From NCBI GenBank assembly GCA_965204785.1, contig OZ242015.1, forward strand, positions 1,942,538-2,006,537: a DNA stretch of 64,000 nt, read 5' to 3'. This document shows, in pieces, positions 5,880 through 55,636 of the stretch. A program made the translations under genes and the position numbers. This DNA is from Alphaproteobacteria bacterium (GTDB lineage: Bacteria; Pseudomonadota; Alphaproteobacteria; SP197). Position 1 is the first letter of the stretch, and every line of letters begins with the position of its first letter. The notes below the pieces were generated by a model. The model did not search any database, was not told the DNA's origin, and worked only from the letters and a program-made list of their open reading frames with translations.

Positions 5880-6146
5880 AGGCGCATCGCCCTGCTCTGA
5901 TCCGGTGAGGCGCGATAGATCGAACCGGCCAGAAAGTCTGTGGGATACGGGCAGGGTGGACCGCAGGGCAGACCGGGAAAAGCCGCGGTGCGCACGGAAT
6001 CGATCTCGAAGCAGCACTGTTCATCGATCAGAAGACATCAACGGTTTTCACGCAGGCAACCCTGCGGGTATGTCGAAACCTCATTTCCCGGCCTGAGGGG
6101 CGACAGGGCCGGGCCAGCGCGGCTATGGTCGGCTCGGGAGGACGGT

Positions 6147-7322
6147 ATGACCCAGGCGCGCGCCGCAGGCGAACCCGACGATCACCGCGACATCCGCGAC
6201 GCCGTGCGGCGTCTTTGCGAAAGGTATGACGGCGCGTACTGGCGCGGGAAGGATGCAGAAGACGCCTATCCCGCCGAGTTCGTCTCTGCCCTGACCGAAG
6301 CCGGGCTGCTGGCAGCACTCATCCCCGAGGAATTCGGCGGCAGCGGCCTACCGCTTTCGGCCGGCTGCGCGATCCTGGAGGAAATCCAGCGGTCGGGCGG
6401 CAACGGCGGGGCCTGTCATGCCCAGATGTACACCATGGGTACGGTGCTGCGGCACGGCTCGGACGCGCAGAAACAGATCTATCTGCCCGCCATTGCGTCG
6501 GGCGAACTGCGCCTCCAGGCCTTCGGCGTTACCGAACCGACCAGCGGCACCGACACCACCGCACTGCGCACCACCGCGCGCCGCGACGGTGAGCGTTACA
6601 TCGTCAACGGACAGAAGGTCTGGACGTCGCGGGCCGAGCATTCCGATCTGATGCTCCTGCTGGCACGCACGACGCCAAACGAAGAGACCGTGAAAAAAAC
6701 CGACGGTCTTTCGGTCTTCCTGATCGACATGCGTGAGGTCCTGGGCAAGGGCCTCATTATCCGGCCGCTGCCCGCCATGCTGAACCACGCCACGACCGAA
6801 GTTTTCTTCGACGCCATGGTCATCCCCGCGTCCAGCCTGATCGGCGAGGAGGGCAAGGGCTTCCGCTACATCCTTTCGGGTATGAACGCCGAGCGCATCC
6901 TGATTGCGTCCGAATGCATCGGGGATGCCCGGTTCTTCATCGACCGCGCCACGGCCTATGCGGGCGAACGCCAGGTCTTCGGCCGGGCCATCGGGCAAAA
7001 CCAGGGCATTCAGTTTCCCATTGCCCAGGCTTATGCCCATACCGAGGCCGCGGCCCTGATGGTCGCCGATGCGGCACGGCGCTATGAGGCTGGTGAACAG
7101 CCCGGCGCGCAAGCCAACATGGCCAAGATGCTGGCCGCCGACGCCTCCTGGGAGGCGGCCGAAATGTGCCTCCAAACCCATGGCGGCTTCGGTTTCGCGC
7201 GCGAATACGACATCGAACGCAAGTGGCGCGAGGCACGTCTCTACCGCACCGCGCCGATCTCGACCAACCTGATCCTGGCCTACCTTGCCGAGCACGTGCT
7301 CGGCCTGCCGCGGTCCTACTGA
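6147..7322 (+). CDS. Acyl-CoA dehydrogenase.
   Basis: ACAD N-terminal, middle and C-terminal domain conservation ('GVTEPTSGTDTTALRTTARRDGERYIVNGQKVWTS', 'ARLYRTAPISTNLILAYLAEHVLG'). Confidence 0.85.
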   Translation: MTQARAAGEPDDHRDIRDAVRRLCERYDGAYWRGKDAEDAYPAEFVSALTEAGLLAALIPEEFGGSGLPLSAGCAILEEIQRSGGNGGACHAQMYTMGTVLRHGSDAQKQIYLPAIASGELRLQAFGVTEPTSGTDTTALRTTARRDGERYIVNGQKVWTSRAEHSDLMLLLARTTPNEETVKKTDGLSVFLIDMREVLGKGLIIRPLPAMLNHATTEVFFDAMVIPASSLIGEEGKGFRYILSGMNAERILIASECIGDARFFIDRATAYAGERQVFGRAIGQNQGIQFPIAQAYAHTEAAALMVADAARRYEAGEQPGAQANMAKMLAADASWEAAEMCLQTHGGFGFAREYDIERKWREARLYRTAPISTNLILAYLAEHVLGLPRSY

Positions 7323-8180
7323 TGACACTGCCGCTGGGGGGCTTCCGGTGGTCGCTATCGAGCAGGCCGTCGTGGGCCGGTCTGCACCTGCAGATCGACC
7401 GACACGGGCATGCGCGTGATCAGGATCGAGTGCGCAGAAGGCGACTTCGCGCGGAGCTGCGACAGCGTCGTGGAGGGCGAGAGCGCCTGTTTCGTCTGGC
7501 TCAACCGTGGCAAGGAGTCCGTGACGCTGGATCTGAAGTCGCCGACCGACCGCGATCTGGTGCCAGCCGTGATGAAGCGCTCCGACGTGCTGGTCGAAAA
7601 CCTGAAACCGGGATCGCTGAAACCGCGGGGGTCGCATGGGCCAACTAACAACGGCGTCGACGGCTTGTCCGGCCATGCCGATCTCAGGCAGATGGCCGTG
7701 GGAACGCTCCACGGCTCCGCGAGACTTTTCCACACCGGCCGCACGCCACGACGGCGCACACCGGCCCGGCCGCGGCGCAATCGGAGGCGCTGGCCTGGCT
7801 GTTCCTTGCAGTGTGCCGCCGGAGCCACCGTTTCGGACGGCATCCTGACCCTGGAAGGGGTGAACCCGGTAACCCTGGCCTTCACGAACCGCCCGCAGCG
7901 GATGGTCACGCACGTCGATACGCAGGCCTTTGCCGAGACGGTCTGGAGCGAAGGCGAGAACAGTTTCGCCGCCGGTCCTCCCAACGCGGTGATCGTTTAC
8001 CGCGAGGACTGCGAAACGAAATCGGCAGTGGTGGGACCTGCCGAACTGAGGATGGCCCAAGGCGGCATCCTGACCTGTGCGGTCAGCGTGTTCGACGGCG
8101 TTCTTCCTCCTGCCATGAAGCAGCCCGGGATCATCATCGGCAACACCGGGGGGCGATGGTGGAGGCGGCGCGGCGGGTGA
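7322..8180 (+). pseudogene. CoA-transferase family III (CaiB/BaiF-like) gene. ATG overlaps the ACAD stop; frameshift near 7400-7410 at a GGG run; distal part unrecognisable.
   Basis: Frame A 'MTLPLGGFRWSLSSRPSWAGLHLQIDRHG' resembles 'GIRVLDLSRVLAGP..LLADLGAEVIKIE'. It continues in frame B 'RVIRIECAEGD...ESACFVWLNRGKESVTLDLKSPTDRDLVPAVMKRSDVLVENLKPGSLKPRG', the family III N-terminal signature. Confidence 0.5.
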
Positions 8181-8825: not shown

Positions 8826-9872
8826 TCAGCCCTCCATCACGACCGTGTGTTCGGGCAACCAGGTGATCGCAACTGCCTCACCTGCATCGAACATACGGTC
8901 ACCCGCGTTCTGCTGGAACGTGCGCATGGGCCCCGCGGCGGTCTCGACGATGTAGGTGACGCTGGTGCCCGAGAACACGCGCTGGGTCACCGTGCCCTCG
9001 ACGCGGTTGCCGTCTGAAATGTCGTCCTTTGCCGCCAGGCGCATCTTTTCAGGTCGCACCGCCAGCGTCGCGCGCGCGCCCGCCAGCGGTGATGTCGTCT
9101 TCAGGGCGCCCAGGCGCTCGACCGTGACGCGGTCGCCCTCGACCGTGCCTTCCATGAAGTTGGCATCGCCCAGGAAACCGGCGGCAAAGCGCGTTCGCGG
9201 ATGTTCGTAAACCTCACCCGGCGCACCGATCTGGATCAGCCTGCCCTCGTCGATGATCGCGATCTGGTCGGACAGCGTGAGCGCCTCTTCCTGATCATGC
9301 GTGACGAAGATCGCCGTGATTCCCACCGTACGCTGGATCTGTTTGAGCTCGATCTGCATCTCCTGGCGCAGACGCTTGTCGAGTGCACCCAGCGGCTCGT
9401 CGAGCAGCAGCACCCTGGGCTCGGTGACGAGCGCCCGGGCGAGCGCCACGCGCTGCTGCTGGCCGCCCGAAAGCTGCCTGGGCTTGCGCCGGTCCAGCCC
9501 CGAAAGACGTACGAGGTCGAGCAGTTCGCCGACTTTTTTGCGCGCGTCCGACTTCGAGACCCCGCGCACCGAAAGACCGAACGCAATGTTGTCGAACACG
9601 GTCATGTGCGGAAAAAGCGCATAGTTCTGGAAGACCATGCCGATATCGCGCTTGTGCGCGGGAATGTGGGCGACATCGACGCCGTCGATCAGGATCTCGC
9701 CCTCCTCGGGCTCGACGAACCCGGCGATGGAACGCAGCAAGGTCGTCTTGCCGCTGCCGCTGGGGCCCAGCAGGGCGAAAAACGAACCGTCGGGGAAATC
9801 GAGCGAGACGTTATCGAGCGCCTTGAGGTCGCCGTACCGCTTGGTGACGTTGCGTGCGGAGACTTCGCTCAT
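8826..9872 (-). CDS. ABC transporter ATP-binding protein (PotA/PotG-like, polyamine/opine type).
   Basis: Walker A 'GPSGSGKTT', signature 'LSGGQQQRVALARAL', Walker B 'LLLDEP'; C-terminal TOBE-like domain. Confidence 0.85.
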   Translation of the reverse strand: MSEVSARNVTKRYGDLKALDNVSLDFPDGSFFALLGPSGSGKTTLLRSIAGFVEPEEGEILIDGVDVAHIPAHKRDIGMVFQNYALFPHMTVFDNIAFGLSVRGVSKSDARKKVGELLDLVRLSGLDRRKPRQLSGGQQQRVALARALVTEPRVLLLDEPLGALDKRLRQEMQIELKQIQRTVGITAIFVTHDQEEALTLSDQIAIIDEGRLIQIGAPGEVYEHPRTRFAAGFLGDANFMEGTVEGDRVTVERLGALKTTSPLAGARATLAVRPEKMRLAAKDDISDGNRVEGTVTQRVFSGTSVTYIVETAAGPMRTFQQNAGDRMFDAGEAVAITWLPEHTVVMEG

Positions 9873-10669
9873 CGTTCGCCTCCGAACTTCGAAATACGCG
9901 CGAACACCAAGAACGCCGTCATGGAAACGACGATCATGATGGTGGAGATGGCGTTGACCTCCGGCGTGAATCCCTTGCGGATCGCCGAGAAGATCTCCAC
10001 CGGCAGGACCGAGATACCCGGAGCCGCCAGGAAATAGGAAATGACGAACTGATCAAACGAGACGGCAAAGGCAAAAAGCGAGGCGGCCACGATGCCCGGC
10101 GCCATGACCGGCACGGAAACGCGCAGGAACGTCTGCAGCGGCGGCGCACCCAGGCTGGCCGCGGCTTCCTCAAGCTCGGGCCCGAAGCTCGCCAGCCGCG
10201 CGCCCACGACGATCACGACATAGGGGAGCGAGAGCGCGACGTGGCCCAGCAGCATGGCATGCAGGCCCCGCCCCACGCCGGTCCAGAAGAACAGCACCAG
10301 CATCGAAACGCCGATGATCAGCCAGGGGATCGTGATGGGCGGCAACAGCAGAAGCTGCATCAGGTTGCGCCCGCGGAAGCGGAAGCGTGCGAAGGCATAG
10401 GCCGCCATGGTGCCCAGCGTGGTCGCAATCACCGTGTTGACGAGCGCGAGCAGCACCGAATTGACGCTTGCCGTCAGCAGCCGTTCGTTGCTTGCGAGAT
10501 CGACATACCAGCGCGTCGAAAACGCGAACGGCAATTGGTAGTGCATGGAATCGTTGAAGCTCATCAGAGCCAGAACGAAGATAGGCACGTAAAGGAAGAA
10601 CAGCACCAGGAAGAGGAAAAACCTCCCGAAGCCGTCGCCCATGCGGCACAGGATGCGGTGCGTGTTCAT
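9869..10669 (-). CDS. ABC transporter permease (PotC-like).
   Basis: Six-TM permease; EAA-type loop 'EEAAASLGAPPLQTFLRVSVP'. Confidence 0.8.
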   Translation of the reverse strand: MNTHRILCRMGDGFGRFFLFLVLFFLYVPIFVLALMSFNDSMHYQLPFAFSTRWYVDLASNERLLTASVNSVLLALVNTVIATTLGTMAAYAFARFRFRGRNLMQLLLLPPITIPWLIIGVSMLVLFFWTGVGRGLHAMLLGHVALSLPYVVIVVGARLASFGPELEEAAASLGAPPLQTFLRVSVPVMAPGIVAASLFAFAVSFDQFVISYFLAAPGISVLPVEIFSAIRKGFTPEVNAISTIMIVVSMTAFLVFARISKFGGER

Positions 10670-15480: not shown

Positions 15481-17532
15481 TTACATCACATGCACCAGCC
15501 GCAGGGCGTCGTAGATGGAGGCGTGGATGTTGCGGCTTTCGACGGCATCACCCAGGCGGAAGAGTTGGAAGGCGCCGTCGGGGTGGGCGCGGATCTCCTG
15601 GGGCCGGTTCTCGATCAGCGCGTCGTAATCGACCCCGCCGCGGTTCACGGACTCTTCCTTGAGTTCAAAGTAGAGTTCATCCAGCGGCAGGGTGGCGTGT
15701 TCCACGACGACCTGATCGACCAGGCGCTCGTCATGGGCCGTCCCGGAGAAATCGCTGTAGAGCGTGACCCTGAGTTTGTTGCCTTCCCGCGCGATGCCGC
15801 TGACGCGGCTGAGAATGGTGATCGTCACGCCATGGGTCTGGAAGAACTCGGCGTAGGGCGCGTGGGTGAGCGCGCCCAGTTCCGGGGCGAAGGTCCGCTC
15901 GGGCGAGACGATCTCCACCTTCGCGCCCTTGTCGACGGCAAGCCACGCGGCCTGCATGCCGGGCTGGTGGCCGTTGTCGTCGAACACCAGCACATCCTCG
16001 GCAGGCGCGACCTCGCCCGAGAGGATATCCCAGGAGCTCACGGCAAGATCCGCGCCCTCCTCCACGATGTCCTTGTTGGGCAAGCCGCCGGTGCAGACCA
16101 GCACGATATCGGGATCGAGCGCGCGCACGTCGTCGGCCGCGGCATAGGTGTTGAGCCGGAGGTCGATGCCGAGCTTTTCCAGACGCGCGACGCGCCAGTC
16201 GACGACGCCGATGATATCCCTGCGATTGGGCGTTCGTGCCGCCAGGCGCACCTGGCCACCGGGCTGATCGGAGGCTTCGAACACCGTCACATCGTGCCCG
16301 CGTTCTCCAGCGACCCGCGCCGCCTCGAGACCTGCGGGGCCCGCACCGACGATGACGAACTTCCGCTTTTCCCCTGCGTTGTCGGCGACGATCTGGGGCA
16401 TGGTCGCCTCGCGTCCCGTGGAGGGGTTGTGCACGCACAGCGCGCCGGTGCCCGCATAGACGCTTTCCAGGCAATAGGTCGCGCCCACGCAGGGCCGGAT
16501 TTCCTCCTCGCGCCCCTCACGCACCTTTTTCACGATATGGGGATCGGCAATGTGGGCGCGCGTCATGCCGACCATGTCGAGCTTGCCCTCGGCGATGGCG
16601 TGCCGGGCGGTGGCGATATCGGCGATCCTGTTGGCGTGGAACACGGGGAACTTCGTCTCGGCACGCACCTCGCCGGCAAAGTCGAGATGGGGTGAGGCCT
16701 TCATGCCCGCGACGGGAATGATGTCGGTCAGCGCGCGGTCATGATCGATATGGCCCTTGATGACATTCAAGAAATCGACCTTGCCCGTGGCGATGAAACG
16801 CCGGGCGATTTCCACGCCTTCGTCACGGCCATAGCCCTTTTGCCAGGCTTCGTCGCAGGACATGCGGATGCCGACGATGAAGTCAGGGCCCACGTTTTCG
16901 CGCACGCTGTCGAGCACGCGCAGGGCAAAACGCATGCGGTTCTCCAGGCTGCCGCCGTAGTTGTCGCTGCGCCTGTTGGTGGCGGGCGACCAGAACTGGT
17001 CCATGAGATGGCCGTAGGCCTCGAACTCGATGCCGTCCATGCCCGCCTCTTTCATGCGGGCAGCCGCCGTGCCGTAATCCTTCACGACACGTTCGATGTC
17101 CCAGTCCTCCATTTCCTTCGGGAAGGCGCGGTGGGCAGGCTCGCGCACCATGGAAGGCGCCAGGACGGGCAGCCAGTGTTCCTTGTTCCAGTTGGTGCGG
17201 CGGCCCAGGTGCGTGAGCTGGATCATCACTGCCGTGCCTTCGTCGTGGCAGAGATCGGTCAGACGTTTGAGGCCGGGGATCACCTCGTCCTTCCAGGCCT
17301 GCATGTTCATGAACGCCTGGGCCGAATCCCTGGCGACCACGGTGGACCCGGCGATCATCGTCATGGCGATGCCGCCCTTGGCCTTCTCGTGGTGGTAGCG
17401 GATGTAACGGTCGCCCGCGAGGCCGTCCTCGGTATAGCCCGGCTCATGCGCGGTCGACATGATGCGGTTCTTCAGCGTGAGATGTATGAGCCGATAAGGC
17501 TGCAGAAGGGGATCGCCGTCGGGATCGTACAT
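15481..17532 (-). CDS. NADH:flavin oxidoreductase of the TMADH/DgcA/StcD family (OYE-like FMN barrel, 4Fe-4S site and FAD/NAD(P) domain).
   Basis: Cys cluster 'CVGATYCLESVYAGTGALCVHNP'; 'FVIVGAGPAGLEAA' dinucleotide fold; 683 aa as in DgcA, histamine and trimethylamine dehydrogenases. Confidence 0.8.
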   Translation of the reverse strand: MYDPDGDPLLQPYRLIHLTLKNRIMSTAHEPGYTEDGLAGDRYIRYHHEKAKGGIAMTMIAGSTVVARDSAQAFMNMQAWKDEVIPGLKRLTDLCHDEGTAVMIQLTHLGRRTNWNKEHWLPVLAPSMVREPAHRAFPKEMEDWDIERVVKDYGTAAARMKEAGMDGIEFEAYGHLMDQFWSPATNRRSDNYGGSLENRMRFALRVLDSVRENVGPDFIVGIRMSCDEAWQKGYGRDEGVEIARRFIATGKVDFLNVIKGHIDHDRALTDIIPVAGMKASPHLDFAGEVRAETKFPVFHANRIADIATARHAIAEGKLDMVGMTRAHIADPHIVKKVREGREEEIRPCVGATYCLESVYAGTGALCVHNPSTGREATMPQIVADNAGEKRKFVIVGAGPAGLEAARVAGERGHDVTVFEASDQPGGQVRLAARTPNRRDIIGVVDWRVARLEKLGIDLRLNTYAAADDVRALDPDIVLVCTGGLPNKDIVEEGADLAVSSWDILSGEVAPAEDVLVFDDNGHQPGMQAAWLAVDKGAKVEIVSPERTFAPELGALTHAPYAEFFQTHGVTITILSRVSGIAREGNKLRVTLYSDFSGTAHDERLVDQVVVEHATLPLDELYFELKEESVNRGGVDYDALIENRPQEIRAHPDGAFQLFRLGDAVESRNIHASIYDALRLVHVM

Positions 17533-34303: not shown

Positions 34304-34726
34304 CGCTCTCTCCTCAGTCCGCCGCGCTTGTCGCCGGAACTTGGTCGGACGTCAAGAGTTGTCCCCGACCAGCGCGCGGGATCCTGGCGCGCGCCGGAAA
34401 GGCCGCCGGCTCTCCGTCCGGCTTCCTGTCGGTCCCGCTGACCGCCGGGGCCGAAAACGAACGCCCGTGCCGGAGACCCTGCGTCTCTGCACCGTCTTTT
34501 CGCTGATGAGTGCTACACTGTATTGTGTTAATCCGCACTGACCCGATTTAATCCGGACTCGACCGTCTGCCGATCCGAGTTTTTCCGACGCTGGTAGCGT
34601 TGCAACGCGAGGCCGATCCGCTTTATCCCAAATCCGACACGCGATCCGGGCGCCGCCGATCTTCGCGGACTGTTCGACGCGGCGGATCGCGTGTCGATGC
34701 CGGCGTCTGGTATGTCGGGAAGCGCA

Positions 34727-34948
34727 CTAACGGCCATGCGCCGCGTCGTGGCACGGCCGACACAGCACGATCAGGTTGTCGATATCGAAGGGTGCGCCGC
34801 CGGCGGCCAACGGCGTCTTGTGGTGGGCGGTGAGTTTGCCGGCCCGGTCGCAGCGTTCACACTGCCGCCCGGCGCGCTTGATGGCGCGGCGACGGGCGCG
34901 CCTGTAGCGGCGGTCCCGATAGATGTTTATGGTGCGCTTGGAGCGCAT
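34727..34948 (-). CDS. HNH endonuclease (73 aa).
   Basis: 'CERCDRAGKLTAHHKTPLAAGG...NLIVLCRPCHDAAH' gives the Cys4 Zn finger plus HNH catalytic His/Asn. Confidence 0.8.
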   Translation of the reverse strand: MRSKRTINIYRDRRYRRARRRAIKRAGRQCERCDRAGKLTAHHKTPLAAGGAPFDIDNLIVLCRPCHDAAHGR

Positions 34949-34958
34949 GGAACGGTGC

Positions 34959-34995
34959 GAGAAAAAGACGGGCGGCGCCCCGAAAGGCGCCGCCC
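34959..34995 (-). terminator. Rho-independent terminator on the minus strand: GGGCGGCGCC-cuuucg-GGCGCCGCCC, then GUCUUUUUCUC. It ends immediately 5' of the HNH start codon.
   Basis: 10-bp GC stem plus U-tract, read directly. Confidence 0.65.
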
Positions 34996-35366
34996 ATGTG
35001 CGAGTGCCTATGCCTCGCCGTCCCGCCGCGCCATTGAGCGCGCCGAGCGGCGTGACAGATAGTCGCCCACCTTGAAGGCATGTTGTGTGCCGGCCTTCGC
35101 CAGCATCAGGACGCCGGCCAGCTTGTCGTAGTCGTCCTTGCCTATCGGCTCGGAGAAGCTGGCATTGTCAATCGGGCACTCCGATGATCGCGCCGATGGT
35201 CCGCGTTTGGCAGGTCATGTCGATCACCCGGAGCATGTCGCCGGCCGACGGCGTGCGGCAGAAGTCCGCTGGGCCTTCCGGCGTGCGTGGCATGGTGTAG
35301 AGTATCATCGTCGTCTCTCCTAAGTGGTTTTAGGGGTTGCGATATGAGGGCGGCGGGATGTTTCGC

Positions 35367-37451
35367 TCATCCTGCCGCCCTCGCCTTTCCGAGGATCAGA
35401 TCGGCGTGCCGCCGCCATTCCTCCCTCGAAATCTCGTCGTCTTCGGCCTGCCTGGCGCGGCGCTCGGCCGGCGTGAACTCGAAGGCGGCCGCCACGGCCG
35501 CCATGTCGTCGCTGGGCTGGATCGGCCGCACGGCGTTCGCCGGCACCTGGGCATCCGCGGCGCTCGCGGCGGTCCTCGCCAGGGCCTCGCGAAGGTCCAC
35601 CGCATCGGTGTCGGCCCGCAGGGACCTGATGCCCGCGCGGGCCGTTGCGCGGCGCCGTGCGGCCTCCCGCGCACCCTCGGGATCAAGCGCGTCATAGGGC
35701 CGGTCCTCGGCCACCATGCAAAGCAGACGCCCGGCGGCGTCCATGACGGGGATCTCCGGAAGGTCGCCCCAGATCGGTACGCGCAGGTGAAGATACGACC
35801 CGGCCGGGAGCGCCTGTATCTCGGGCGCGGTATAGCGCCGGCCGTCATAGGAGAACCCGCCCTGGTGCACGGTGCGGGACTTGTCGCGGGCGAAGGCGGC
35901 CAGCAGGGCACCGCGCGTCACGTCCATGCGCCGCCAGCCGGCCGCCACCGCATCGGCGTATGCCTGGCGCGGCGAGCGGCCCTCCAGGGCGCCCGATTGC
36001 GGGTGCGTCTCGTAGGCGGCAACCGCGTTCGCGAGGTCCGCCAGGAACGCCGCCCTGCCATGCGGATAGGGCGCCGGCTCGCGGCCCACGTTGGCGGTCT
36101 TCTTGGTCATGCGGTCGCCGCCGATCCAGCCCGGAAGCATTGAGAAGACGCCCCGTTCAAGGACGCTGAACAACCCTTCAACCGCCTTTGCAGGGGCGTT
36201 GTAGGGCTGTGCCCTCACGATGGCGCCGCGGTGCGCCGTCAGCTCGTGGTGAACCGCCGGATCGTCCGACAGCAGGCGCGTCTCCGTGGCGAGCTGCAGC
36301 GCCCCGGACAACAGCTCCATGTGGCCGTACTCGTTGCCGTGGTCGAGGTAGAGCGTCTGGGGCAGGCCCCATTCGGGGTCCAGCGTCATCGCGATAAACG
36401 CCTCGGCAACATGCTCCTGGCGCACGTCCCGGCCCTTCTCCGGGAACACCGGATGAATGAAGACGCGATTGGCCGCCCAGTCCTGGAAGCAGACCAGGCG
36501 GGCCGTGAACGTGCCGCCATCGGCGCGCGGCAACAGCACGTCCATCGGATGCACGTCGCAGACGACGATCTCCATGGGAAGACGGCTGGCGCGGGTGCGC
36601 CGGATGCGCGGCATGTGCTTGTCGTGCCATTGCTTGGCGTCCTGGTCGTGGATCGCGACGGCGCGCCAGGCGCGGCCGCGCTCGACGAAGCGCTGACCCA
36701 GCTTGCAGATCTCGCGCAGCTCGCGGTCGCTGCCCTCGTAGCCCGCCGCGCGGGTGCGCTCCATAAGCTCGTCGGATGCCAGCCGCGCGATCCAGCGCCA
36801 GCCCGGCTCGGTCGTGGCGGCCCAGAGCGAGCGCACATGGCGATCCATGCCGGTCGCGATCTCCGCCATGGCGGCGGCGTCCAAGTGCGCCGTCATGGCG
36901 GCGTCCCAGGCGGCGCTGACATGGTGGCGGCGGCGGCCCGCGTCCGCTCGCCGCTTGCGGCCCACGGCACCGAGGCCGCCGGCCTCGTGAGCGGCTATCC
37001 ACTCATAGATCGTGCGTCTGGAGACACGGCCGCGCCGCCCGCTCGGGTGGAGGCGGACCTGCCGCGCGGCATCGTCAACGGCCAGGCGGCGCGCGGCGGA
37101 ACCAAGCGGATGTTGCAGGGCCGGGCGGATGATCTCCATGCGCCAGGCAATGACGGAACCCGCCGCCGCAAGGTCCGGCACCGACGGCGCAGCGGATGCC
37201 GGCGCCGGAAGCGCCGGGAGGGCTGCGGGCGAAGCGTCGGGAAGGCTGGACTGGTGGACCTCGAAGGCCCAGCCTGCCTTGCCGCCGGGCGAGGGGACCC
37301 GCCGGGCAAGCAGCGCACGGCCGCGCCAGGGCTTGCCGTCGAGGGCGCGGGAAAGGGCCTTGCGGGCATTTCGATGTGATATTCCGACAGCAGCGGCGAA
37401 GGCCGCCACAGGGAGCCAGCCTTCCACTCTTATGCCGCCGCGCAGCACCAT
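35367..37451 (-). CDS. Mu-type DDE transposase (MuA/TnsB-like: N-terminal winged-helix DNA binding, rve catalytic core, Mu-transposase C-terminal domain).
   Basis: DDE residues in 'VVCDVHPMDVL', 'YLDHGNEYG', 'AVEGLFSVLER'. C-terminal 'VHQGGFSYDGRRYTAPEIQALPAGSYLHLRVP' is the Mu_transposase_C beta-barrel. Confidence 0.8.
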   Translation of the reverse strand: MVLRGGIRVEGWLPVAAFAAAVGISHRNARKALSRALDGKPWRGRALLARRVPSPGGKAGWAFEVHQSSLPDASPAALPALPAPASAAPSVPDLAAAGSVIAWRMEIIRPALQHPLGSAARRLAVDDAARQVRLHPSGRRGRVSRRTIYEWIAAHEAGGLGAVGRKRRADAGRRRHHVSAAWDAAMTAHLDAAAMAEIATGMDRHVRSLWAATTEPGWRWIARLASDELMERTRAAGYEGSDRELREICKLGQRFVERGRAWRAVAIHDQDAKQWHDKHMPRIRRTRASRLPMEIVVCDVHPMDVLLPRADGGTFTARLVCFQDWAANRVFIHPVFPEKGRDVRQEHVAEAFIAMTLDPEWGLPQTLYLDHGNEYGHMELLSGALQLATETRLLSDDPAVHHELTAHRGAIVRAQPYNAPAKAVEGLFSVLERGVFSMLPGWIGGDRMTKKTANVGREPAPYPHGRAAFLADLANAVAAYETHPQSGALEGRSPRQAYADAVAAGWRRMDVTRGALLAAFARDKSRTVHQGGFSYDGRRYTAPEIQALPAGSYLHLRVPIWGDLPEIPVMDAAGRLLCMVAEDRPYDALDPEGAREAARRRATARAGIRSLRADTDAVDLREALARTAASAADAQVPANAVRPIQPSDDMAAVAAAFEFTPAERRARQAEDDEISREEWRRHADLILGKARAAG

Positions 37452-38097
37452 CTACAATCTGAGCCAGGAGACGCGCGAGGATCTGGACTTTCGTATCGTA
37501 GCCAGCGGGTTCGGCCGCTATGCGGACCATGCCGCCTGGCTTGCCGGACGGGGCCAGGCGGTAAGCGTGGCGGCCCTCCAGCGTTACGGCCGGAACTTGC
37601 GAAAGAGGGTCGACGCGGACGCCTCGCTACAGAGTGCAGCGACGGCGGCCGCCATCGCCCGCATCCGTCACAGCGCCGAGATGGCGCGTGCGCTGCGCCA
37701 GGCCTCCGGCGACGATCCCCTGGCCATTTCGGAACAGGCGGCCGAGGTCGTCATAGCACGGATTTACGAGATCGCGACCAGGGAAGACATCGACGCCAAG
37801 ACCCTCCAGGGCATCGTGCGCTCGCTCAACGACAGCCTGCGCGCCGTGGCGGCGATCCGTTCCGAAAAGGACGAAACGGCGCGCCAGCAGGCCCGGCATG
37901 AAGCGGAACGCAGGATGTCGGCTGACGGAAGGAAACACGGTGTCAGTGCCGTGGTCATCGACGCGTTCCGGCACGTCATAGAGGGCGGGCCAGAGCCGGC
38001 CGGCGAGGTCAAGGGCATCAGCGACGAGACTGACGCCGCGATCATGGACGTTCTTGCGCCCAAGCCAGAGCGCGCGCCGCCCGGCACCGCCAGTTGA
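37432..38097 (+). CDS. Mu gp27-like protein (DUF3486; putative small terminase/DNA-binding protein of Mu-like phages). Start overlaps the transposase start divergently.
   Basis: 'STIYNLSQETREDLDFRIVASGFGRYADHAAWLAGRGQAVSVAALQRYGRNLRKRV' matches the DUF3486 N-terminal pattern (from memory). Confidence 0.55.
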   Translation: MPPRSTIYNLSQETREDLDFRIVASGFGRYADHAAWLAGRGQAVSVAALQRYGRNLRKRVDADASLQSAATAAAIARIRHSAEMARALRQASGDDPLAISEQAAEVVIARIYEIATREDIDAKTLQGIVRSLNDSLRAVAAIRSEKDETARQQARHEAERRMSADGRKHGVSAVVIDAFRHVIEGGPEPAGEVKGISDETDAAIMDVLAPKPERAPPGTAS

Positions 38098-38420
38098 CGC
38101 ATCCCCGTTGCAACCTGAAGAAAGGCCGCGCAGCGGTGCCTGTGGCGGCCTGAAAGGGCGGTCGCGACGGCATCTCGTGCGTTGAGGGCGCCACAGGCTG
38201 CCTCTGGTGCGCCTGGTCGAGCTGGCGGACCGTCAACAGGCCGGCCGGGACTCCGAGGCCGCACCAAGCGCGCCCTGGCGGCGCGCTGGAGGGCATGTCG
38301 AGCTGGTGGCGGCCCCGGCCCGCGTCGGACTATCCTGTCTACGACATCCTCCGGGCGCATTCTGACACGTTGAACCGCCGTTGAAGGCGGCATAAACGGG
38401 CCTTTAAAGGGTCTTGCAGT

Positions 38421-38510
38421 GAGGGTCCGCAATAGGTCCTCAACAGGATCCGCAATCGCAAGCGGCCCGCCGTTAAGTGCGTGAATACACGACAAACACG
38501 ATTGCGGACT
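38421..38510. repeat. Three TCCGCAAT-containing sites within 90 bp (two direct, one inverted), resembling transposase/repressor binding sites at the edge of the Mu-like remnant.
   Basis: ggTCCGCAATagg, gaTCCGCAATcgc, and cgATTGCGGActc (inverted). Confidence 0.4.
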
Positions 38511-38764
38511 CACTGACCCACTTCATTTCGGACTGGAAACAGCTATCTGCCGGTTTTTACGCCACTATTCCCATGTGCCATAGATCCTCACTCAGTGCGA
38601 AATAGCGCGGGTCGCTCTAGTGCCTCCAGATACAAAGTGTTCAATTCCTTGTCGGTCGGGCCGAATGGCTGGTCTCTCCATCCTTCGCCGGCTGCCGTGT
38701 CCACACAACGGCGAACCGTCGAAGCAAGGTGAGCTGCTCTTCGTTGATTTCGCCGGCATTGGGC

Positions 38765-39334
38765 TTACCCGCCTCGACCTGTTCCCCTTGGTTTGGAGCC
38801 GCCTTGCCAAACACCGAATGTGTCCGCTCCTCCGATTGGACGGGAGTCGTCAACAGCGTTCGGCCCTGGGCTCGCCGATCTCCCGGATTGTTTTCCTCCC
38901 TTGAGAGACGTTGGAGAGAGGCGGAAGCGCCGATCAATGAGGCGGTCGGGCCAGAAACCGAAAAACGGATACCTCATGCTATTGACAAGCGTATGGAACT
39001 CGGAATCCGGTACGGCCAGAACAGCCGTGCAGGAGCAGCCGATCAAGTTTCTCCAAACCACGTCTTCCGCAGGCCAGAACGTGCGTGCGATGGCATGGAT
39101 GATGCCGGCGGTGATGTTCGCCTGTAAGCCATGATCGTCGAATGCCGCGATTGGCACCTTTACCGCAATCTCGGTCGGGCTCAGCCCTACGTACCGCGGC
39201 GTCGCCATATTCGAAGCGCAGCTCAAGTTCATAGTTTTGTCGGCGAACAGAGGATCCATGGGCCCCTCATAGGCTTCCAAACCTTTTCTGCTTATACATT
39301 CCGGGTAGACGGGCGCCCACCCGTAGGAGGTCAA
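38765..39334 (-). CDS. Hypothetical protein (≤189 aa; true start probably internal; C-terminal 50 aa low-complexity, possibly frameshifted) in an AT-richer segment.
   Basis: ORF only; no motif recognised. Confidence 0.3.
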   Translation of the reverse strand: MTSYGWAPVYPECISRKGLEAYEGPMDPLFADKTMNLSCASNMATPRYVGLSPTEIAVKVPIAAFDDHGLQANITAGIIHAIARTFWPAEDVVWRNLIGCSCTAVLAVPDSEFHTLVNSMRYPFFGFWPDRLIDRRFRLSPTSLKGGKQSGRSASPGPNAVDDSRPIGGADTFGVWQGGSKPRGTGRGG

Positions 39335-39659
39335 ACCCGCGCCCCCAGTACAGCGGCGCCCCCAGGATCATCAGGAGCATGAGCCAGAAAAGAGGTCCAC
39401 CTCTCATAGGTCGAAACCTCTGAGCCGTGCCGGATGCAGTATTGGGAGCGGCCGGCCGCTCGTGCAACGCCAAATCCGGGATGATCTGATTGTCCCATTT
39501 GTCTACCATGCGGCGTGTTTTGGGCGAGCCCGCGACCGGCGTGCGCCGGTCGCGGGTTACCGATTGCGCTTCCGCTCCAATTTCCGTGAGGTGTGGTGCC
39601 GGGTAAGATTGTCCGCATCGAGGCGAAAGCGTGATGGTTCGACGGCGATGGCCCCGCGA

Positions 39660-40436
39660 CTACCCTAGGTTCTCGTCCAAGAAGGCCGTGGTGCGCTGCC
39701 AGGCGAGCGCGGCGTCGGCTTCATCGTAGCGGGCGCTGGTCGGGTTGGCGAAGGCATGGTCGGCGTCGTACCAGAAGACGGTGACAGGCTTTTCGGCCTG
39801 CATCATGGCCGCGACGAAACCATCGACCATGGGTTCGTCAATCCACTGGTCGCGCGTCGCGAAGTGGCCCAGAACCGGGCCTTCGAGCGCTTCGAGTTGT
39901 TCAGGCGTGCGATCGACATTGCCGTAATAGACGACGGTGGCGTCCACGGAACGGACGAGCGAGGCGTCGAGCGACCAGCCGCCGCCGAAACACCAGCCGA
40001 CCGTGCCGGCGGCATCGGTCGTGTCGTCACGTGCCCGCAGCCAGTCGATCCAGGCGGCTAGGGTTTCCGACGCCTCCGCATTATCGACCTGATTCATGTA
40101 GGTGCGCGCGTCATCGGGATCGTCGGCGACCTTGCCACCGTACAGATCGACCGCGAGCGCGCCGTAACCTTGTTCGACAAAATCGGCCGCCACGGCCTTG
40201 ATGTTGTCGTTGAGGCCCCACCATTCGTGCACCAGCAGGACGCTGGGCGCGGGCGCAGATTGCGATGCTCCCCAGGCCGCCGAAACCTGGAGGCCCGACG
40301 CGGTGGTAATCTCAACCGTTTCGAGTGAGGATGCAACCGCACGTGCCGCCGCAGGGTCGGCCAGGATCGCAGCCAGGCTTCCGGCGGCAACAGGTGCAGT
40401 CATCAACTGTCCCAGAACCTCACGACGCCCGAACAT
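39660..40436 (-). CDS. Dienelactone hydrolase family protein with a Tat-like signal (RREVL).
   Basis: 'VLLVHEWWGLNDNIKAVAADFVEQGYGALAVDLYGG' and 'GWCFGGGWSL'. Confidence 0.8.
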   Translation of the reverse strand: MFGRREVLGQLMTAPVAAGSLAAILADPAAARAVASSLETVEITTASGLQVSAAWGASQSAPAPSVLLVHEWWGLNDNIKAVAADFVEQGYGALAVDLYGGKVADDPDDARTYMNQVDNAEASETLAAWIDWLRARDDTTDAAGTVGWCFGGGWSLDASLVRSVDATVVYYGNVDRTPEQLEALEGPVLGHFATRDQWIDEPMVDGFVAAMMQAEKPVTVFWYDADHAFANPTSARYDEADAALAWQRTTAFLDENLG

Positions 40437-50442: not shown

Positions 50443-51658
50443 TTGCCCGGTGAGACCGCTTATCGCTCGCCGGGCCCCGACTTGTATCAGAGGAGACGCC
50501 CAATGGCCGGGTCATGGTTCCGGGCGCCGTTGAACGCAATCGTGCTGCTTTGGGGCGTGTTGCTCATCACGTCATGCGATGACGCCGCGACGCCGATGCC
50601 AACCGCGACGCCACCACTCACGCTGATGGTCGTGACCGTCAGCGAACGCGAGATCGTTGGCGAGGCCTAATTACGTCGGTCGCGTCGAGGCGGTGGCCGA
50701 TGTCGAGTTGCGTGCACGGGTCACCGGTTTCATCGAGGAAATCCTGGTCACCGGCGGCCAGGACGTGAAGGAAGGTGATCTTCTTTTCCTGATCGAGTGC
50801 GCACCGTTCCAAGCCAGCGTCGATCTAGCCCGCGCCAACGTCGCCAACGCGCAGACCAATGTGAACATGACCGGATTGCAACTCCAGCGCAGCCAAACCC
50901 TTTACGACGGCGGCGATCTGACCAAGGCCAGGCTGGAACAGGACCGCTCGGCATAAAGGCAGGCGACCGCCCAACTCCAGGCCGAACAGACGCAGTTGCG
51001 TCAGGCCGAGATCGAATTTGGCTATACCTTGATCATCGCGCCCATTGCAGACCATGTCGGCGCGACCGCCTACAGCGTGGGCGTCCTTGTCGACGCCTCC
51101 AGCAATCTCTTGACGGACATCATTAGCCTCGATCCCATATACGTGACCTTCTCGGTCAACGAAAACATCATGTTCCAGGTCAAACGCGTCCGCATCGAAC
51201 TGGGTCTGGACGCAACGTTCGAGGCAACCGACGGGATCGAGACCCTGGTCATCCCCGGCTGTGCTTGTCCGACGGCAGCGGCGTCATCGACTTCATCAAA
51301 AGCACGGTAGACCTTCGCACGGGCGCGATAGACGTCCGCGGTGTTTCCCAACCCGGATCAGTTTCTTTCGCCGGGCCAGTTCGTGACCGTGGTGGTCAGC
51401 GAGGAAGCACCGCAAAGCGCCATCACGATCCCCCAGACCGCGGTGCAGAGTGACAAGGCCGGCACCTTTGTCCTAGTGGTCGATGCCCAGAACCAAGTCT
51501 CGCAACGGCGCATCACGACCGCGAGGACCGACGGCACCGACTATGTGGTCAACAGTGGTCTCGTCCAGGGCAACACAGTGATCGTCCAGGGCATCCTGAA
51601 GGTGTGGCCCGGCGCGCCGGTCAACCCGGTCTACGATACCAGCGGCGCCGGCGGCTGA
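50443..51658 (+). pseudogene. RND efflux membrane-fusion (AcrA-like) protein gene, fragmented over ≥4 frames.
   Basis: Pieces: lipoprotein signal 'LLITSCDD'; 'YVGRVEAVADVELRARVTGFIEEILVTGGQDVKEGDLLFLIE'; 'QAEIEFGYTLIIAPI'; 'GQFVTVVVSEEAPQSAITIPQTAVQSDKAGTFVLVV'. First break is a missing C in 'gaggcc(c)taat' at 50664-50672. Confidence 0.7.
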
Positions 51659-51665
51659 GCAGACC

Positions 51666-53060
51666 ATGGCAGACTTTTTCATCGAGCGGCCGAAGTTCGC
51701 GTTCGTCATCTCGATCCTGATTACCCTGGGCGGGCTCATCTCACTCAGCGTCCTACCAGTCTCCGAGTTTCCCGACATTTCACCCCCGCAGGTCTCGATA
51801 TCCGCCAGTTATCCCGGCACCAATGTCGAAGTCATCGAGGACACGGTAGCCGGCCGATCGAGTCCCAGGTCAACGGCGTCGACGGCATGAGCTCGACCAG
51901 TTCATCTTCGGGAAGCTAAAACCTCACCGTTACCTTCGATCTGGGGATCGATTCCGACCTTGCCGCGGTCAACATCCAGAACCGTGTCGCGGTTGCCGAA
52001 AACTCATTGCCCGAGGAAGTCTGGCGCGGCGGCGTAACCGTCAAGAAGGCCTCGCCCAGCATGTTGATGGTGATCAACGTGTTTTCACCGCAGGGCACCT
52101 ATGACAGCGTGTTCCTCAGCAACTACACCAGCATCAATCTGCGCGACGCCATCCAGCGCGTGCCAGGGGTCGGTGACGCTTCGCTTCTGGGCACGCAGGA
52201 CTACGGCATGCGTGTCTGGCTCGACCCTGACCGCATGGCTTCGCTTGTCCTGACGGCGAGCGATATCGTCAACGCCATCCGCGCGCATAACATCCAGGCC
52301 ACCGCGGGCCAGATCGGCGCCGCGCCAATCGGCGAGGGCCAGCAGTTCCAGTATTCGATCAGAGCGCAGGGTCGCCTGAGTTCGCCCAAGGAATTCGGCG
52401 ACATCGTCGTCATCTCCTATCCCGAAGGCGGGGATCCGCGCCTGCGCGACATCGCGCGTATCGAACTGGACTCGGCAGCATATGGCTCCTACGGACAACT
52501 GAACGGACAGGCTCCGGCGGCGCTCGCCATCTATCAGGCGCCGGGTGTCAACGCGCTCGTCATGGCCGAAGTCGTGATGAACGATGTCGAGGAAATCCTG
52601 ATGACACGGGCGGCGTCGCCGACGTCATGGTCATTCCGGGCTTCAACCTGCTGGGCGGCGCGATCTCGAACGGCGGCATGGTCATCGTGGTGCTAGACCC
52701 CCGGGAAGAGCGCACGACCCGTCGCTCGACATCAACGTGATCATGGGCAAAGCCCAGGACCAGATTCTGGCAATCAGCCAGGCCAACGCATTCGCGCCGC
52801 CGGTTCCGGGACCAGGCACGACCGGCGGCTTCGATTTCAAGGCCCAGGACGTTTCGGGCCGGACGCTCCAGAATCTCGCCCAGGCGATCGGCGCTATGAT
52901 GTACAACGCCAACCAGGACTCCATGCTTTCGGGCGTTTTCAGCACTTTCCGCGCCAACGTGCCGCAGCTCTTCCTGGAGGTCGACCGCGAGAAGGCCGAG
53001 ACGCTGGGCATTCCGCTAGTCGTCATCCATCCCGCGCCGCGCCGGGCGGTCACGACATAA
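51666..53060 (+). pseudogene. RND efflux permease (AcrB-like) gene. Only ~the first 450 of ~1040 codons remain, with frameshifts and an in-frame TAA (51917-51919).
   Basis: 'MADFFIERPKFAFVISILITLGGL...PPQVSISASYPGTNVEVIEDTV' and 'NIQNRVAVAENSLPEEVWRGGVTVKKASPSMLMVINVFSPQGTY' in different frames. Homology ends ~53040, where a minus-strand TM-protein remnant (53016-53311) begins. Confidence 0.7.
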
Positions 53061-53313: not shown

Positions 53314-53925
53314 TCAGCCGCGCTTGGCGATGTCGTTGAGTTGTTTCTGGAGCGCGTCGATCTGGCCCTTGAGGGCGTCGAGACTGGCGCCACTGCCTTC
53401 TGCGGGCACATCGGACTCGGCCTTGCCGTTGCCGGTCGCAGCGGAGCCTGGATAGAACATCTCCATGGTGCGTTGGAACATCGCCATGTTGTTCTTGACC
53501 ATGTCCTCCATGGCCCCGCCGGCTTCCTGTCCGCCGAAGGGAAATATCTGGCCGAAGGTCTGAGACATCATGTCGCGCACCTGCTCCTGATTTTTCGTCA
53601 GGTTCTCCATGCTCATTTCGAGATAACGCGGCACGAAGGTCTGCAGGCTATCGCCATAAAAGCCAATCAGTTGGCGAAGAAAGCTGATGGGCAGAAGGTT
53701 GGCGCCCTTGGACTCCTCTTCGACGATGATCTGTGTGAGCACCGACCGCGTGATGTCGTCGCCCGATTTGGCGTCGAACACGGCGAACTCCACGCCGTCC
53801 TTCACCATCTGGGCGAGGTGGTCCAGCGTGACGTAACTGCTGGTCGCCGTGTTGTAGAGACGGCGGTTGGCGTATTTCTTGATGACGACAGCACCGTCGT
53901 CCTGCTTTTCCTGTTCGCGCGCCAT
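53314..53925 (-). CDS. phaR: Polyhydroxyalkanoate synthesis repressor PhaR.
   Basis: 'VVIKKYANRRLYNTATSSYVTLDHLAQMVKDGVEFAVFDAKSGDDITRSVLTQII' (PHB_acc_N). Confidence 0.85.
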   Translation of the reverse strand: MAREQEKQDDGAVVIKKYANRRLYNTATSSYVTLDHLAQMVKDGVEFAVFDAKSGDDITRSVLTQIIVEEESKGANLLPISFLRQLIGFYGDSLQTFVPRYLEMSMENLTKNQEQVRDMMSQTFGQIFPFGGQEAGGAMEDMVKNNMAMFQRTMEMFYPGSAATGNGKAESDVPAEGSGASLDALKGQIDALQKQLNDIAKRG

Positions 53926-53989
53926 TATGGGTGCACCCGTCTCTGCTTTGACGCCCATTATGACGCCTATGCTGCAATGCGAACAGGTT

Positions 53990-54270
53990 TTGTTGCAACG
54001 CGGGATATCCCAGACGGATTTTGTTTTAGCCTCAGTCGCCGGCACTCGCTCCGCTCGCCTGACTTCCGCGCCTATCGGCGCGCCAGTGCGATCGCACCGG
54101 CCGGCGCCCGCTCCGCTCTTGCCGCCGAACGGCATCATGACCACCTCAAGTTTGTAGGCGGGAGGCCCTTTATGGGGCCGACAGGGACGCGACCGCGTAT
54201 GCGGCGTGAGCCAAGTGAGCGGAGCGAGCAAAACACCCAAGCCGAACCCAATTCCGCGCGTTATACTATC
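53990..54270. repeat. Copy B of the mosaic intergenic repeat family, in the phaR–phaC-like intergenic region. Has ~14-bp terminal inverted repeats CACTCGCTCCGCTCGC…GCGAGCGGAGCGAG.
   Basis: Shares 'GCCGCCGAACGGCATCATGACCACCTCAAGT' and 'GGAGGCCCTTTATGGGGCCGACAGGG…AAGCCAAGTGAGCGGAGCGA' modules with copies A and C. Confidence 0.7.
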
Positions 54271-54274
54271 GCCA

Positions 54275-55636
54275 TGACCAAGCGCGACGAACGCGACGAA
54301 CTTGCCAGTCTTGCCAGGGACTTCATGGACCTGTGGCAGGAGCACGTGGCCCAGCAGGCGGCCGACCCGACGCTGGCGCGCTGGGCGCAGACCTGGCTTG
54401 CCAACATGCCGACGGGGGTGACCGGGGATGGAAGCACACAGGACGGGGCCGCGCCCCTTGGCCCTGCATCTCGCAACATCGGCAAGCGTCTGGATGAGTT
54501 CGCTCGCCGCCTTGGGGCCTGCGAGGAGCGGCTTGATAAGCTGGAGCAAAAACCTGCCCGCAAAACAGCGCGAAAGTCTGGGCCCGATCCAGACCGCGAT
54601 CGCGGCAGCCGACGCTGAAGGGCTGGCCCGCGAAGTCACCGCCGAAGCGACGCGCCGCCTTTCCGAATTCGTCGCCGGCATCCGTGCCTATCGTGACCAC
54701 CCCTACCGCCGTCCCGCGACACAGGCTGGGCCGATCTGGCAGGACGGCTCCTCGCGGTTGCTGGACTACGGCGGCACGGGCCGTCCGCTGCTTCTCGTTC
54801 CGTCCCTTATCAACCGCGCGGAAATCCTCGACCTGCGGCCGGGTGCGAGCTTCTGCGCCTGGCTCCGCGACCATGGGCATCGTCCCCTACTGCTCGACTG
54901 GGGTGCGCCGGGCGAGGCGGAGACCAATTTCAACCTCGACACATACATCAACCGGCGCCTGGGCGTTGCGCTCGATGCGGCCAACAGACTGGCGGACGGA
55001 TCGGTCCCCATGGTCGGCTATTGCATGGGCGGTTTGCTGGCTCTCGCCTCGGAGTTCGCCAACTCCGGCAAGGTTTCAAGCCTCGCTCTGCTTGCCACGC
55101 CCTGGGATTTCCATGCCGACCGCAGCGGCCAAACCGGCATGCTCGCCACAGCCGCGGCACTGCCTAGCGCGCCGGACACCCCGCCGCTCCCGGTCGATCT
55201 GATCCAGGCGCTGTTTGCCTCCCTGCAGCCCAACCTGATCCAGGCGAAGTTCCGCCGCTTCGCCACGATGGACCCGGCCGCCCCGGAAACAGAGGCCTTT
55301 GTCGCACTGGAGGATTGGCTGAACGACGGCGTCGCACTCGCAGCACCGGCTGCGCGTGATTGCCTGATCGGCTGGTACCGCAACAACACCCCGGCCGAAG
55401 GCCGCTGGATGGTGAACGATGTGCCCATCGACCCCGGCAAGCTTACCTGCCCCGCCTTCGTCGCACTCTCCACCCGTGACCGCATCGTGCCGCCTGCCTC
55501 GGCGAGCGCACTGGCCCAGGCTCTGCCTGACCCCACAGTCATCGAACCGCGCACCGGCCACATCGGCATGATGGTCGGCAGCCGCGCCGAATCAGCGCTG
55601 TGGTGGCCATTGGCGGAGTGGCTGGAGTCCCACTAA
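54275..55636 (+). CDS. PHA-synthase (PhaC)-like alpha/beta hydrolase, short form; one frameshift at an A5 run near 54547-54554.
   Basis: Lipase box 'VGYCMGGLL'; 'RPLLLVPSLINRAEILDLRPGASFCAWLRDHGHRPLLLDW' parallels the PhaC 'PLLIVPPWINKYYILDL' region. N-terminal 54275 frame joins the 54428 frame at 'LDKLEQ|KNLPAKQ'. Confidence 0.6.

Follow-up and report, generated by a model that had tools for sequence, protein, structure and literature searches.

A probable defective Mu-like transposable element that has kept both of its ends in an alphaproteobacterial genome

We analysed a 64,000-nucleotide stretch of contig OZ242015.1 from an Alphaproteobacteria bacterium, referred to here as the window, in which a block of Mu-like genes lies between positions 34514 and 38618. 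These 4,105 bp contain an open reading frame for a 694-residue DDE transposase of the MuA/TnsB type (gene A, 35367..37451, minus strand), a full-length gene for a 221-residue homologue of Mu gp27 (37432..38097, plus strand) and a gene for a 73-residue HNH endonuclease (34727..34948, minus strand). The block is delimited by two inverted ends, which we term L-type (34514..34641, plus strand) and R-type (38410..38618, plus strand), and is flanked by a perfect 5-bp duplication, AGTGC. The initial annotation, made from the sequence alone, had described an eroded Mu-like transposable element with surviving ends and some putative protein-binding sites, and this core reading is supported by the end profiles and by the duplication reported below. 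We consider it likely that the block belongs to an uncultured clade of Mu-like transposable elements, found mainly in Alphaproteobacteria, of which it is a defective member with a rearranged interior.

The product of A, previously called a Mu-type transposase, indeed matches PHROG 310, the transposase family of transposable phages, with an E-value of 1e-41. Its Pfam matches are sub-threshold: Mu-transpos_C (PF09299) reaches 16.3 bits (E = 0.01) against a cut-off of 21.7, several helix-turn-helix (HTH) models also stay below their thresholds, and there is no rve match. We found 157 homologues in 5.8 billion proteins, the closest being 77% identical (P0001, from the related locus L007; loci are designated by L and a number) and the others 60% identical or less. 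Among 34 members of the A family, 22 match PF09299 at E <= 0.001 and two match the Mu DDE_2 model. Since a phmmer search of the PDB with the window protein gave no match, we used a profile made from the 34 homologues, which recovered TnsB (8e-12) and MuA (3e-7 for 4FCY and 2e-4 for 1BCM). This profile aligns with MuA through the Mu-transpos_C region, and in the alignment to 4FCY it places D299, D370 and E425 (window numbering), which are invariant across the 34 homologues, on the 'GD', 'IDN' and 'AKPVE' motifs; the catalytic triad of MuA is D269/D336/E392. Translated searches (tblastn) with A gave no match in 50,697 phage genomes and only relatives of 32-35% identity adjoining an AAA ATPase in plasmids. 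Viral contigs yielded only relatives of 34-38% identity in the ordinary A>B> order. A belongs to a divergent, uncultured branch of the MuA/TnsB superfamily.

Downstream of A, a 46-residue open reading frame (35168..35308, minus strand) turned out to encode the N-terminal 45 residues of MuB (35174..35308), with a stop directly after codon 45, and the earlier statement that no MuB-like ATPase is present was wrong in this respect. With the MuB proteins of six relatives, tblastn aligned residues 1-45 at 44-56% identity (E-values from 1e-6 to 1e-13) and found no match in the window to MuB sequence beyond residue 45. The MuB-type AAA+ gene expected downstream of A is thus present as ancestry, in the form of a 45-codon stub, and not as a function. 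The stub is followed by a frame of 54 codons (35011..35173, minus strand), open to a stop before a terminator and showing a codon-position G+C of 0.65/0.46/0.81, which is the coding pattern of the genome. Homologue searches gave no match for this frame; it looks like, and probably is, the 3' end of a gene cut by an internal deletion. The strong rho-independent terminator that had been seen here was recovered by a terminator scan at 34968..34997 on the minus strand (13-bp stem with 10 G-C pairs, followed by a T-run), between the gene remnant and the HNH gene. Searches by tblastn with the relatives' proteins found no GemA, gp26-like, repressor or DnaA_C-like gene in the window element, in keeping with the earlier remark that a repressor is missing.

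The HNH endonuclease was correctly recognised at the outset. It matches PF01844 (1.7e-10) and PHROG 589 (5.9e-17), and its zinc-finger type motif CxxC...HH...N...CxxCH can be read intact from the sequence. In a word-based search of 5.8 billion proteins the query retrieved nothing but itself, and the gene was not found in related loci. It is located downstream of the terminator, at the site where relatives have a repressor gene. The proposal that HNH and the small-terminase-like gp27 are juxtaposed in a phage packaging module does not hold, as the HNH gene lies on the far side of A, about 2.5 kb from gp27 and on the opposite strand, and there is no large terminase; no virion genes (head, tail, large terminase, lysis) were found between 34514 and 38618. 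The HNH gene, which has no link to gp27, is best called cargo of the element.

The gp27 product scores 48.4 bits (1.8e-12) with PF11985 (DUF3486), whose cut-off is 28, and the match extends over positions 1-171 of the 173 in the profile; PHROG 426, 'terminase small subunit', is matched as well (2.5e-16). Alignments with the gp27 proteins of relatives start at residue 1 and show 55-62% identity. The gene starts at 37432 rather than at 37433 as first implied, and the overlap with the start of A that had been described is real and amounts to 20 nt. This divergent A/gp27 pair is, however, not a native arrangement, as a comparison with relatives shows. Homology of the A protein to all relatives begins at a conserved WL motif at residue 12, and in window coordinates spans 35370 to about 37418. 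The first 11 codons (37419-37451), specifying MVLRGGIRVEG, are foreign and are the antisense of gp27 codons 1-7. Conversely, gp27 matches its relatives from the ATG at 37432, whereas the 40 nt upstream do not, A sequence replacing the conserved stretch. About 13 nt between the A body and the gp27 ATG (37419..37431) match neither A nor gp27 of relatives, and the nucleotide homology between the window and L007 (81.6% over 2.2 kb) ends at 37400. We found no sigma-70-like promoter in the region and no Shine-Dalgarno-like sequence before the start of either gene. Because the first codons of A are antisense to gp27 and the sequence upstream of gp27 has been replaced by A sequence, the overlapping divergent starts are a rearrangement junction and not a regulatory design.

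We next consider the two ends. The L-type end begins with the terminus TACACTGTATTGTGT at 34514, followed by two putative transposase sites of the form TAATCCGS, TAATCCGC (34529-34536) and TAATCCGG (34549-34556), which are 20 nt apart, i.e. separated by 12 nt. A search with blastn-short revealed no terminal inverted repeats in the relatives. As the ends share only short sites, they were identified from a comparison of the left boundaries of different loci. Those of L004, L010 and L013 occur in three distinct genomic settings, and in each of them homology starts sharply at TAGTGTGTACCGCGG, after which TAATCCGG, 12 nt and a second TAATCCGG follow; the right ends of these three elements were not found. 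The same layout of a terminus and two sites is present at ends of L004, L010, L013 and L008. An L-end profile built without the window or L007 finds its best match in the 64 kb at 34514-34558 (E = 2.5e-5). In addition, window positions 34529-34641 share 80% identity with the final 113 nt of contig L007, the locus with the transposase closest to that of the window, and the orientation relative to A is the same. As a separate observation, the L-type end of L004 has a second, inverted copy of this end type directly next to it (9110-9159 and 9172-9223; the same in L005). The two termini are about 11-12 nt apart, which looks like two ends placed back to back or like a neighbouring solo end.

The R-type end has its terminus at 38618 and a more elaborate architecture of about 200 bp. 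It comprises two direct GTCCGCAAT-type repeats (38426-38433 and 38449-38456), an inverted copy of this repeat (38501-38508), a site-like segment in direct orientation (38511-38540) and a terminal inverted site (38592-38604; reverse complement TATTTCGCACTGA). A three-way alignment revealed the same architecture in L008 (7435-7645) and L016 (15845-16062), the conserved parts being two direct GTYCGCMAAT repeats, a CTAA...TTGAAA spacer, an inverted ATTGCGGACTC, the direct-orientation segment, the terminal inverted site and the terminus itself. A profile derived only from L008 and L016 matches the window at 38433-38622 (E = 4.5e-13), and the L-end profile matches the terminal part of the R end weakly, in inverted orientation. 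The window element hence has two inverted ends with short putative sites in each, both recovered by profiles made from relatives only. The three TCCGCAAT sites listed in the initial annotation, two direct and one inverted, are present at 38426(+), 38449(+) and 38501(-), so that three of the five copies in the window fall within 83 bp; the motif is not over-represented in the 64 kb as a whole (5 copies against 3.3 expected). The TAATCCGS sites and the TCCGCAAT array are most likely binding sites for the transposase, and possibly for a repressor.

The element had been thought to be framed by imperfect direct repeats of about 60 bp. These repeats exist, with a 27-nt core of 78% identity (73% with gaps) and further short shared blocks, but their resemblance is not beyond chance: in local alignments with four scoring schemes, the right repeat ranked 16th to 85th among about 1,268 200-nt chunks of the window when compared with the left one. 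Nor do they frame the element, since the right repeat corresponds to the internal site-like segment at 38511-38540 that is also found in L016 and L008, and the true right boundary is located 80-110 nt beyond it. The resemblance is probably best explained by similarity among binding-site-type motifs, and not by att-like repeats.

The outer boundaries are given by the AGTGC copies, which can be read directly from the sequence at 34509..34513 and 38619..38623. They fall exactly where the boundaries of the relative L008 predict them: in L008, ACCGA occurs at 629-633, before the left terminus, and again at 7646-7650, after the right terminus. The chance of a pentamer matching at five of five pre-fixed positions is about 0.001, and such a match is seen twice independently, in the window and in L008. 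The window element thus shows the 5-bp target-site duplication that is a feature of Mu-type transposition. The duplication boundaries define its termini as 5'-TACAC...GCTCT-3', i.e. TA...CT; the TG...CA terminal dinucleotides of Mu are not found, and relatives start with TAG or TAC. A TG is present 5 nt inside the left terminus, and the TGTATTGTG that had been pointed out as an echo of the Mu end does exist, 5 nt inward from the terminus deduced from the duplication. The G+C content is 68.5% for the element and 71.8% for A, compared with about 64-65% for the flanks.

Joining the flanks in silico restored no convincing open reading frame, so that the target was non-coding. It lies between a GAF-domain gene and a dienelactone-hydrolase gene. 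In a comparison of the region with the nearest host relative, L011, whose GAF protein is 84% identical to that of the window, synteny extends on the left side only, up to position 34363 just left of the element, and the other side differs; a tblastx comparison with L011 yielded uninformative noise. There is no tRNA gene and no integrase reading frame at the element, and an Rfam scan of 33.5-40.5 kb gave no family. Mu-like late genes were absent among 20 profiled neighbouring reading frames (31.6-33.8 kb and 39.7-54.7 kb), and tblastn with the relatives' A, B, GemA, gp27, capsid and protease proteins produced no other significant match in the 64-kb window.

We compared the window element to its relatives by reading the surroundings of 12 distinct related elements (L001, L004/5, L006, L007, L008, L009/10, L013, L015/16, L027, L028 and two short contigs). 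The order rep< A> MuB> (small)> GemA> gp26-like> gp27> is shared by eight of the 12 (L001, L004/5, L008, L009/10, L013, L015/16, L027 and L028). In these eight, one or two repressor-like genes with an N-terminal HTH (PHROG 638, weak) read leftward, and A and gp27 are co-directional and about 2 kb apart, whereas in the window they lie on opposite strands. The gp26-like gene encodes a PHROG 436 protein of about 105 residues, and a DnaA_C-like protein often comes after gp27; L027 has, at the place of gp27, a product without a PF11985 match. A MuB-type ATPase is found just downstream of A in every relative examined, with AAA_22 in all and Phage-MuB_C in most. No TniQ, TnsA or CRISPR components were recorded among the relatives' neighbours. 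Among the loci examined, gp27 sequence divergent from A occurs only in the window and in L006. In L006 the breakpoint is again exactly at the gp27 start, a repressor gene sits between A and gp27, and gp27 is a fragment of 58 codons.

The start of gp27 has a further property. Its first ~25 nt (ATGCCGCCSCGMAGCAC...TCTACA) are near-identical in the window (37432-37460), L001, L004, L010, L013 and L015, although the gp27 proteins of these elements are only 47-60% identical to that of the window. With both rearranged copies, the window and L006, broken exactly at the gp27 start codon, this position may be a cis-acting or a fragile site.

The relatives vary in what follows the early genes. Tail or capsid genes are present in some members (L007, L016, L001, L006 and L028), and in others ordinary bacterial genes follow directly. 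L008 is a complete unit of 7,012 bp (634-7645) with both end types and the ACCGA duplication. Its eight genes encode rep, A, MuB, a 97-residue reading frame, GemA, a gp26-gp27 fusion and two reading frames of 176 and 197 residues; none of the eight gave a virion-type match, and the last two have no PHROG match at all. L028 (8213-16749) contains rep, A, B, GemA, gp26-like and gp27 genes, directly followed by a gene for a 619-residue Phage_capsid_4 protein, two small genes and then host genes. In L006 (396-3136), Mu-like gpT and protease genes adjoin the gp27 fragment and the repressor gene. L028 and L006 thus add capsid genes and lack a terminase large subunit, a portal and a tail. L004/5, L009/10 and L013 share one seven-gene block with non-phage genes directly after it. 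Between L004 (14977-20608) and L013 (11141-20648), an identity of 86% extends from the L-type end into the DnaA_C-like gene and breaks off about 30 nt short of its stop. Beyond that point, L004 has an MmeI-type restriction-modification enzyme, HipA and DUF3037, and L013 has a peptidase S8, Toprim, AAA_25 and an rve/AAA_22 transposon; the two loci share a 180-nt segment (92% identical) 5-9 kb further on. The differing genes may be variable cargo inside larger elements, for which no second end was found.

The position of the two end types relative to the genes also differs among relatives. In L008 and L016 the L-type end adjoins rep/A and the R-type end, with its TCCGCAAT array, is at the far side. 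The L-type end likewise adjoins rep/A in L004, L010 and L013, whose second end was not found. In L027 (end at 6278-6401) and L028 (ends at 7897-8058 and 16834-16863), it is the R-type end that adjoins rep/A, with the L-type end at the far side in L028. L007 has an L-type end at the far side (10308-10420), and the sequence adjoining rep/A is missing. How the gene block is oriented relative to the end types does not track the similarity of the transposases, a pattern that suggests repeated inversion or exchange of ends within the family. The window combines both arrangements: with A directed at the L-type end it resembles L007 and L028, and with gp27 directed at the R-type end it resembles L008 and L016.

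The simplest history of the window element would involve one inversion and one deletion. On our reading, the element inserted by MuA-type DDE transposition into the non-coding DNA between the GAF-domain and dienelactone-hydrolase genes, duplicating AGTGC. The inversion, with one breakpoint near codon 12 of A and the other immediately before the gp27 ATG, would have been followed by a deletion reaching from inside a left-hand gene to MuB codon 45. Both events could have occurred at the present site, or in a precursor that afterwards transposed as a natural mini-Mu. The block of A and the MuB stub now lies inverted relative to gp27, and A, without its first ~11 codons, is joined head to head to gp27, which leaves no promoter or ribosome-binding region between them. 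Missing from the interior are the repressor, GemA, the gp26-like gene and all but the stub of MuB. With A deprived of its native N-terminus, promoter and ribosome-binding site, MuB gone and no repressor, the element is very probably an inert remnant that cannot move on its own now. Its ends being intact, a related transposase could still move it in trans.

Several points weigh against this interpretation. The termini are TA...CT and not the TG...CA of Mu, and a 4-bp duplication with TA...TA termini is a possible alternative. An empty site, which would confirm the boundaries, was found neither in the host relative L011 nor in metagenome contigs; the reconstructed empty site CGCTGATG-AGTGC-CTCCAGATAC and the right flank had no matches in the latter. 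The A frame is open throughout its 694 codons and retains the DDE triad, and neither gp27 nor HNH is disrupted, which indicates that the element has been recently damaged or is partly maintained. The ratio dN/dS is 0.35-0.46 for every A pair in the family, a value that is uninformative on decay and cannot date the damage. The proposed events are not a unique solution, as a recombinant of two differently organised elements that later transposed would also fit. Finally, the part of the genome covered in the search for further copies or a helper is the 64-kb window.

Which kind of element was damaged is a related question. It could be that the ancestor was not a full prophage but a compact (~7-8 kb) Mu-like element, either a Mu-type satellite or a plain transposon, carrying rep, A, B, GemA, a gp26-like gene, gp27 and sometimes a capsid gene, without terminase large subunit, portal or tail. 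This would refine our interpretation of a defective Mu-like element, differing from it only in what was lost. The complete 7,012-bp unit of L008, which lacks virion-type matches, the compact L028 with its capsid gene, two small genes and adjacent host genes, and the seven-gene blocks of L004/5, L009/10 and L013 all speak for a compact ancestor, as does the distance of only ~520 nt between gp27 and the right terminus in the window, as though little ever lay there. Full phage-like members nevertheless exist near the lineage of the window: L007, which has the closest A (77%), and L016 contain tail genes (tape measure, DUF6631), and L001 has a GpJ-like gene. Moreover, compact loci other than L008 have no detectable second end and could be truncated prophages. 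We therefore regard a compact ancestor as a tentative proposal, somewhat less probable than not.

The compact units of A, B, GemA, gp26 and gp27 could themselves be Mu-type satellites or plain transposons. A more specific scenario would place the window copy, as a decayed representative, in a so far undescribed group of compact (~7-8 kb) alphaproteobacterial Mu-type elements that act as transposing phage satellites, redirecting the packaging of a helper Mu-like phage, with the window copy mobilised and packaged in trans as a natural mini-Mu. Taken as a whole we find this rather doubtful. We know of no description of satellites of transposable phages, and literature on DUF3486 and on Mu-like satellites contained nothing relevant that we could find, which is weak evidence of novelty. 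For the relatives only, an analogy can be drawn to cf-PICI and other satellites, which similarly combine their own replication or mobility module with a small-terminase-like protein; a capsid protein is sometimes present (L028, L006) and tail genes are absent from the compact relatives. They differ in using Mu-type transposition instead of an integrase. The window copy is defective in any case.

The open A, gp27 and HNH frames, together with both ends and an intact duplication, might also suggest a working minimal transposon, in which A and gp27 are divergently expressed from promoters inside each other's 5' ends, gp27 serves as an accessory DNA-binding protein and HNH is cargo. We consider this quite unlikely, given that the N-terminus of A has been replaced by antisense gp27, that MuB is a 45-codon stub followed by a stop, that neither start is preceded by a promoter-like site or a ribosome-binding sequence, and that the only other divergent case, L006, has a repressor gene between A and a 58-codon gp27 fragment. 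An integrase-type genomic island or a dispersed repeat, delimited by the att-like ~60-bp direct repeats, can draw on their 27-nt core and shared blocks and yet is highly improbable, because their similarity is within the window background, there is no integrase, tRNA gene or other repeat copy in the window, and the two copies coincide with a Mu-type end on the left and with part of the conserved right-end architecture on the right.

We compared the element to known transposition systems. Defective and mini-Mu derivatives of bacteriophage Mu and Mu-like prophage remnants occur in bacterial genomes, and the window element is an object of this known sort, from a little-known group of compact Mu-like elements in Alphaproteobacteria. 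Its DDE transposase aligns with the core and the C-terminal domain of MuA with the triad conserved, and in its relatives a MuB-type AAA+ partner is encoded next downstream, along with homologues of GemA and gp27 and a repressor that reads divergently. Each end has several short sites in inverted orientation, with one reversed inside the right end, and the duplication is of 5 bp. Like a mini-Mu, the window copy keeps its ends and lacks virion genes. It differs from Mu in that A has no tblastn match in the 50,697 phage genomes and scores below every Pfam threshold, in its TA...CT termini and in a site motif, TAATCCGS, unrelated to that of Mu. In the relatives gp27 directly follows the early genes, and in the window A is inverted with respect to gp27 and MuB is truncated.

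The best structure match of the A-family profile is TnsB of Tn7-like and CRISPR-associated (CAST) transposons (PDB 7SVW, 8RDU and 8AA5; E = 8e-12), which shares the N-terminal HTH region and the C-terminal barrel, and Tn7-like elements also have a 5-bp duplication and site arrays at both ends. The choice between a Mu-like and a Tn7-like element was decided by the gene neighbourhoods of the relatives: their ATPase matches Phage-MuB_C, their neighbours are GemA and gp27, and we saw no TnsA, TniQ or CRISPR genes. We thus rejected a Tn7-like transposon. In Mu-like phages of the BcepMu type, the early region is inverted relative to Mu, so that the early block is known in either orientation, and the relatives described here show both orientations relative to the end types. 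The window inversion is of a different nature, as it splits the early/middle block between A-MuB and gp27 and destroys the N-terminus of A, which is damage and not a variant layout of the element.

Some features of the surrounding DNA are worth recording. Between the element and the dienelactone-hydrolase gene, about 1 kb (38624-39660) has a low coding signal and contains a reading frame of 189 residues (38765-39334, minus strand) with no Pfam or PHROG match; this segment and positions 34364-34513 are absent from L011. Further away, short reading frames at 50443-53060 (plus strand) are fragments of one RND efflux operon, with membrane-fusion-protein pieces of 99 and 105 residues and AcrB pieces of 74, 229 and 107 residues, which cover positions 1-62, 117-306 and 637-734 of the 1021-position profile. 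This heavily fragmented pseudogene operon suggests gene decay in the genome or indel errors in the assembly. A PhaR-like regulator at 53314-54681 (minus strand; PHB_acc_N and PHB_acc) is unusually long at 455 residues, with its known domains beginning at residue 266.

The window element can be viewed as a genomic fossil of a past Mu-type insertion, which decayed by internal inversion and deletion while its ends were spared. Ends, site motifs and a 5-bp duplication are now defined for a MuA-like clade that has no match in 50,697 sequenced phages and whose proteins are labelled 'hypothetical' or 'HTH domain protein' by annotation pipelines. These definitions let such elements be delimited elsewhere, and would allow testing whether the compact relatives without virion genes are satellites of transposable phages.

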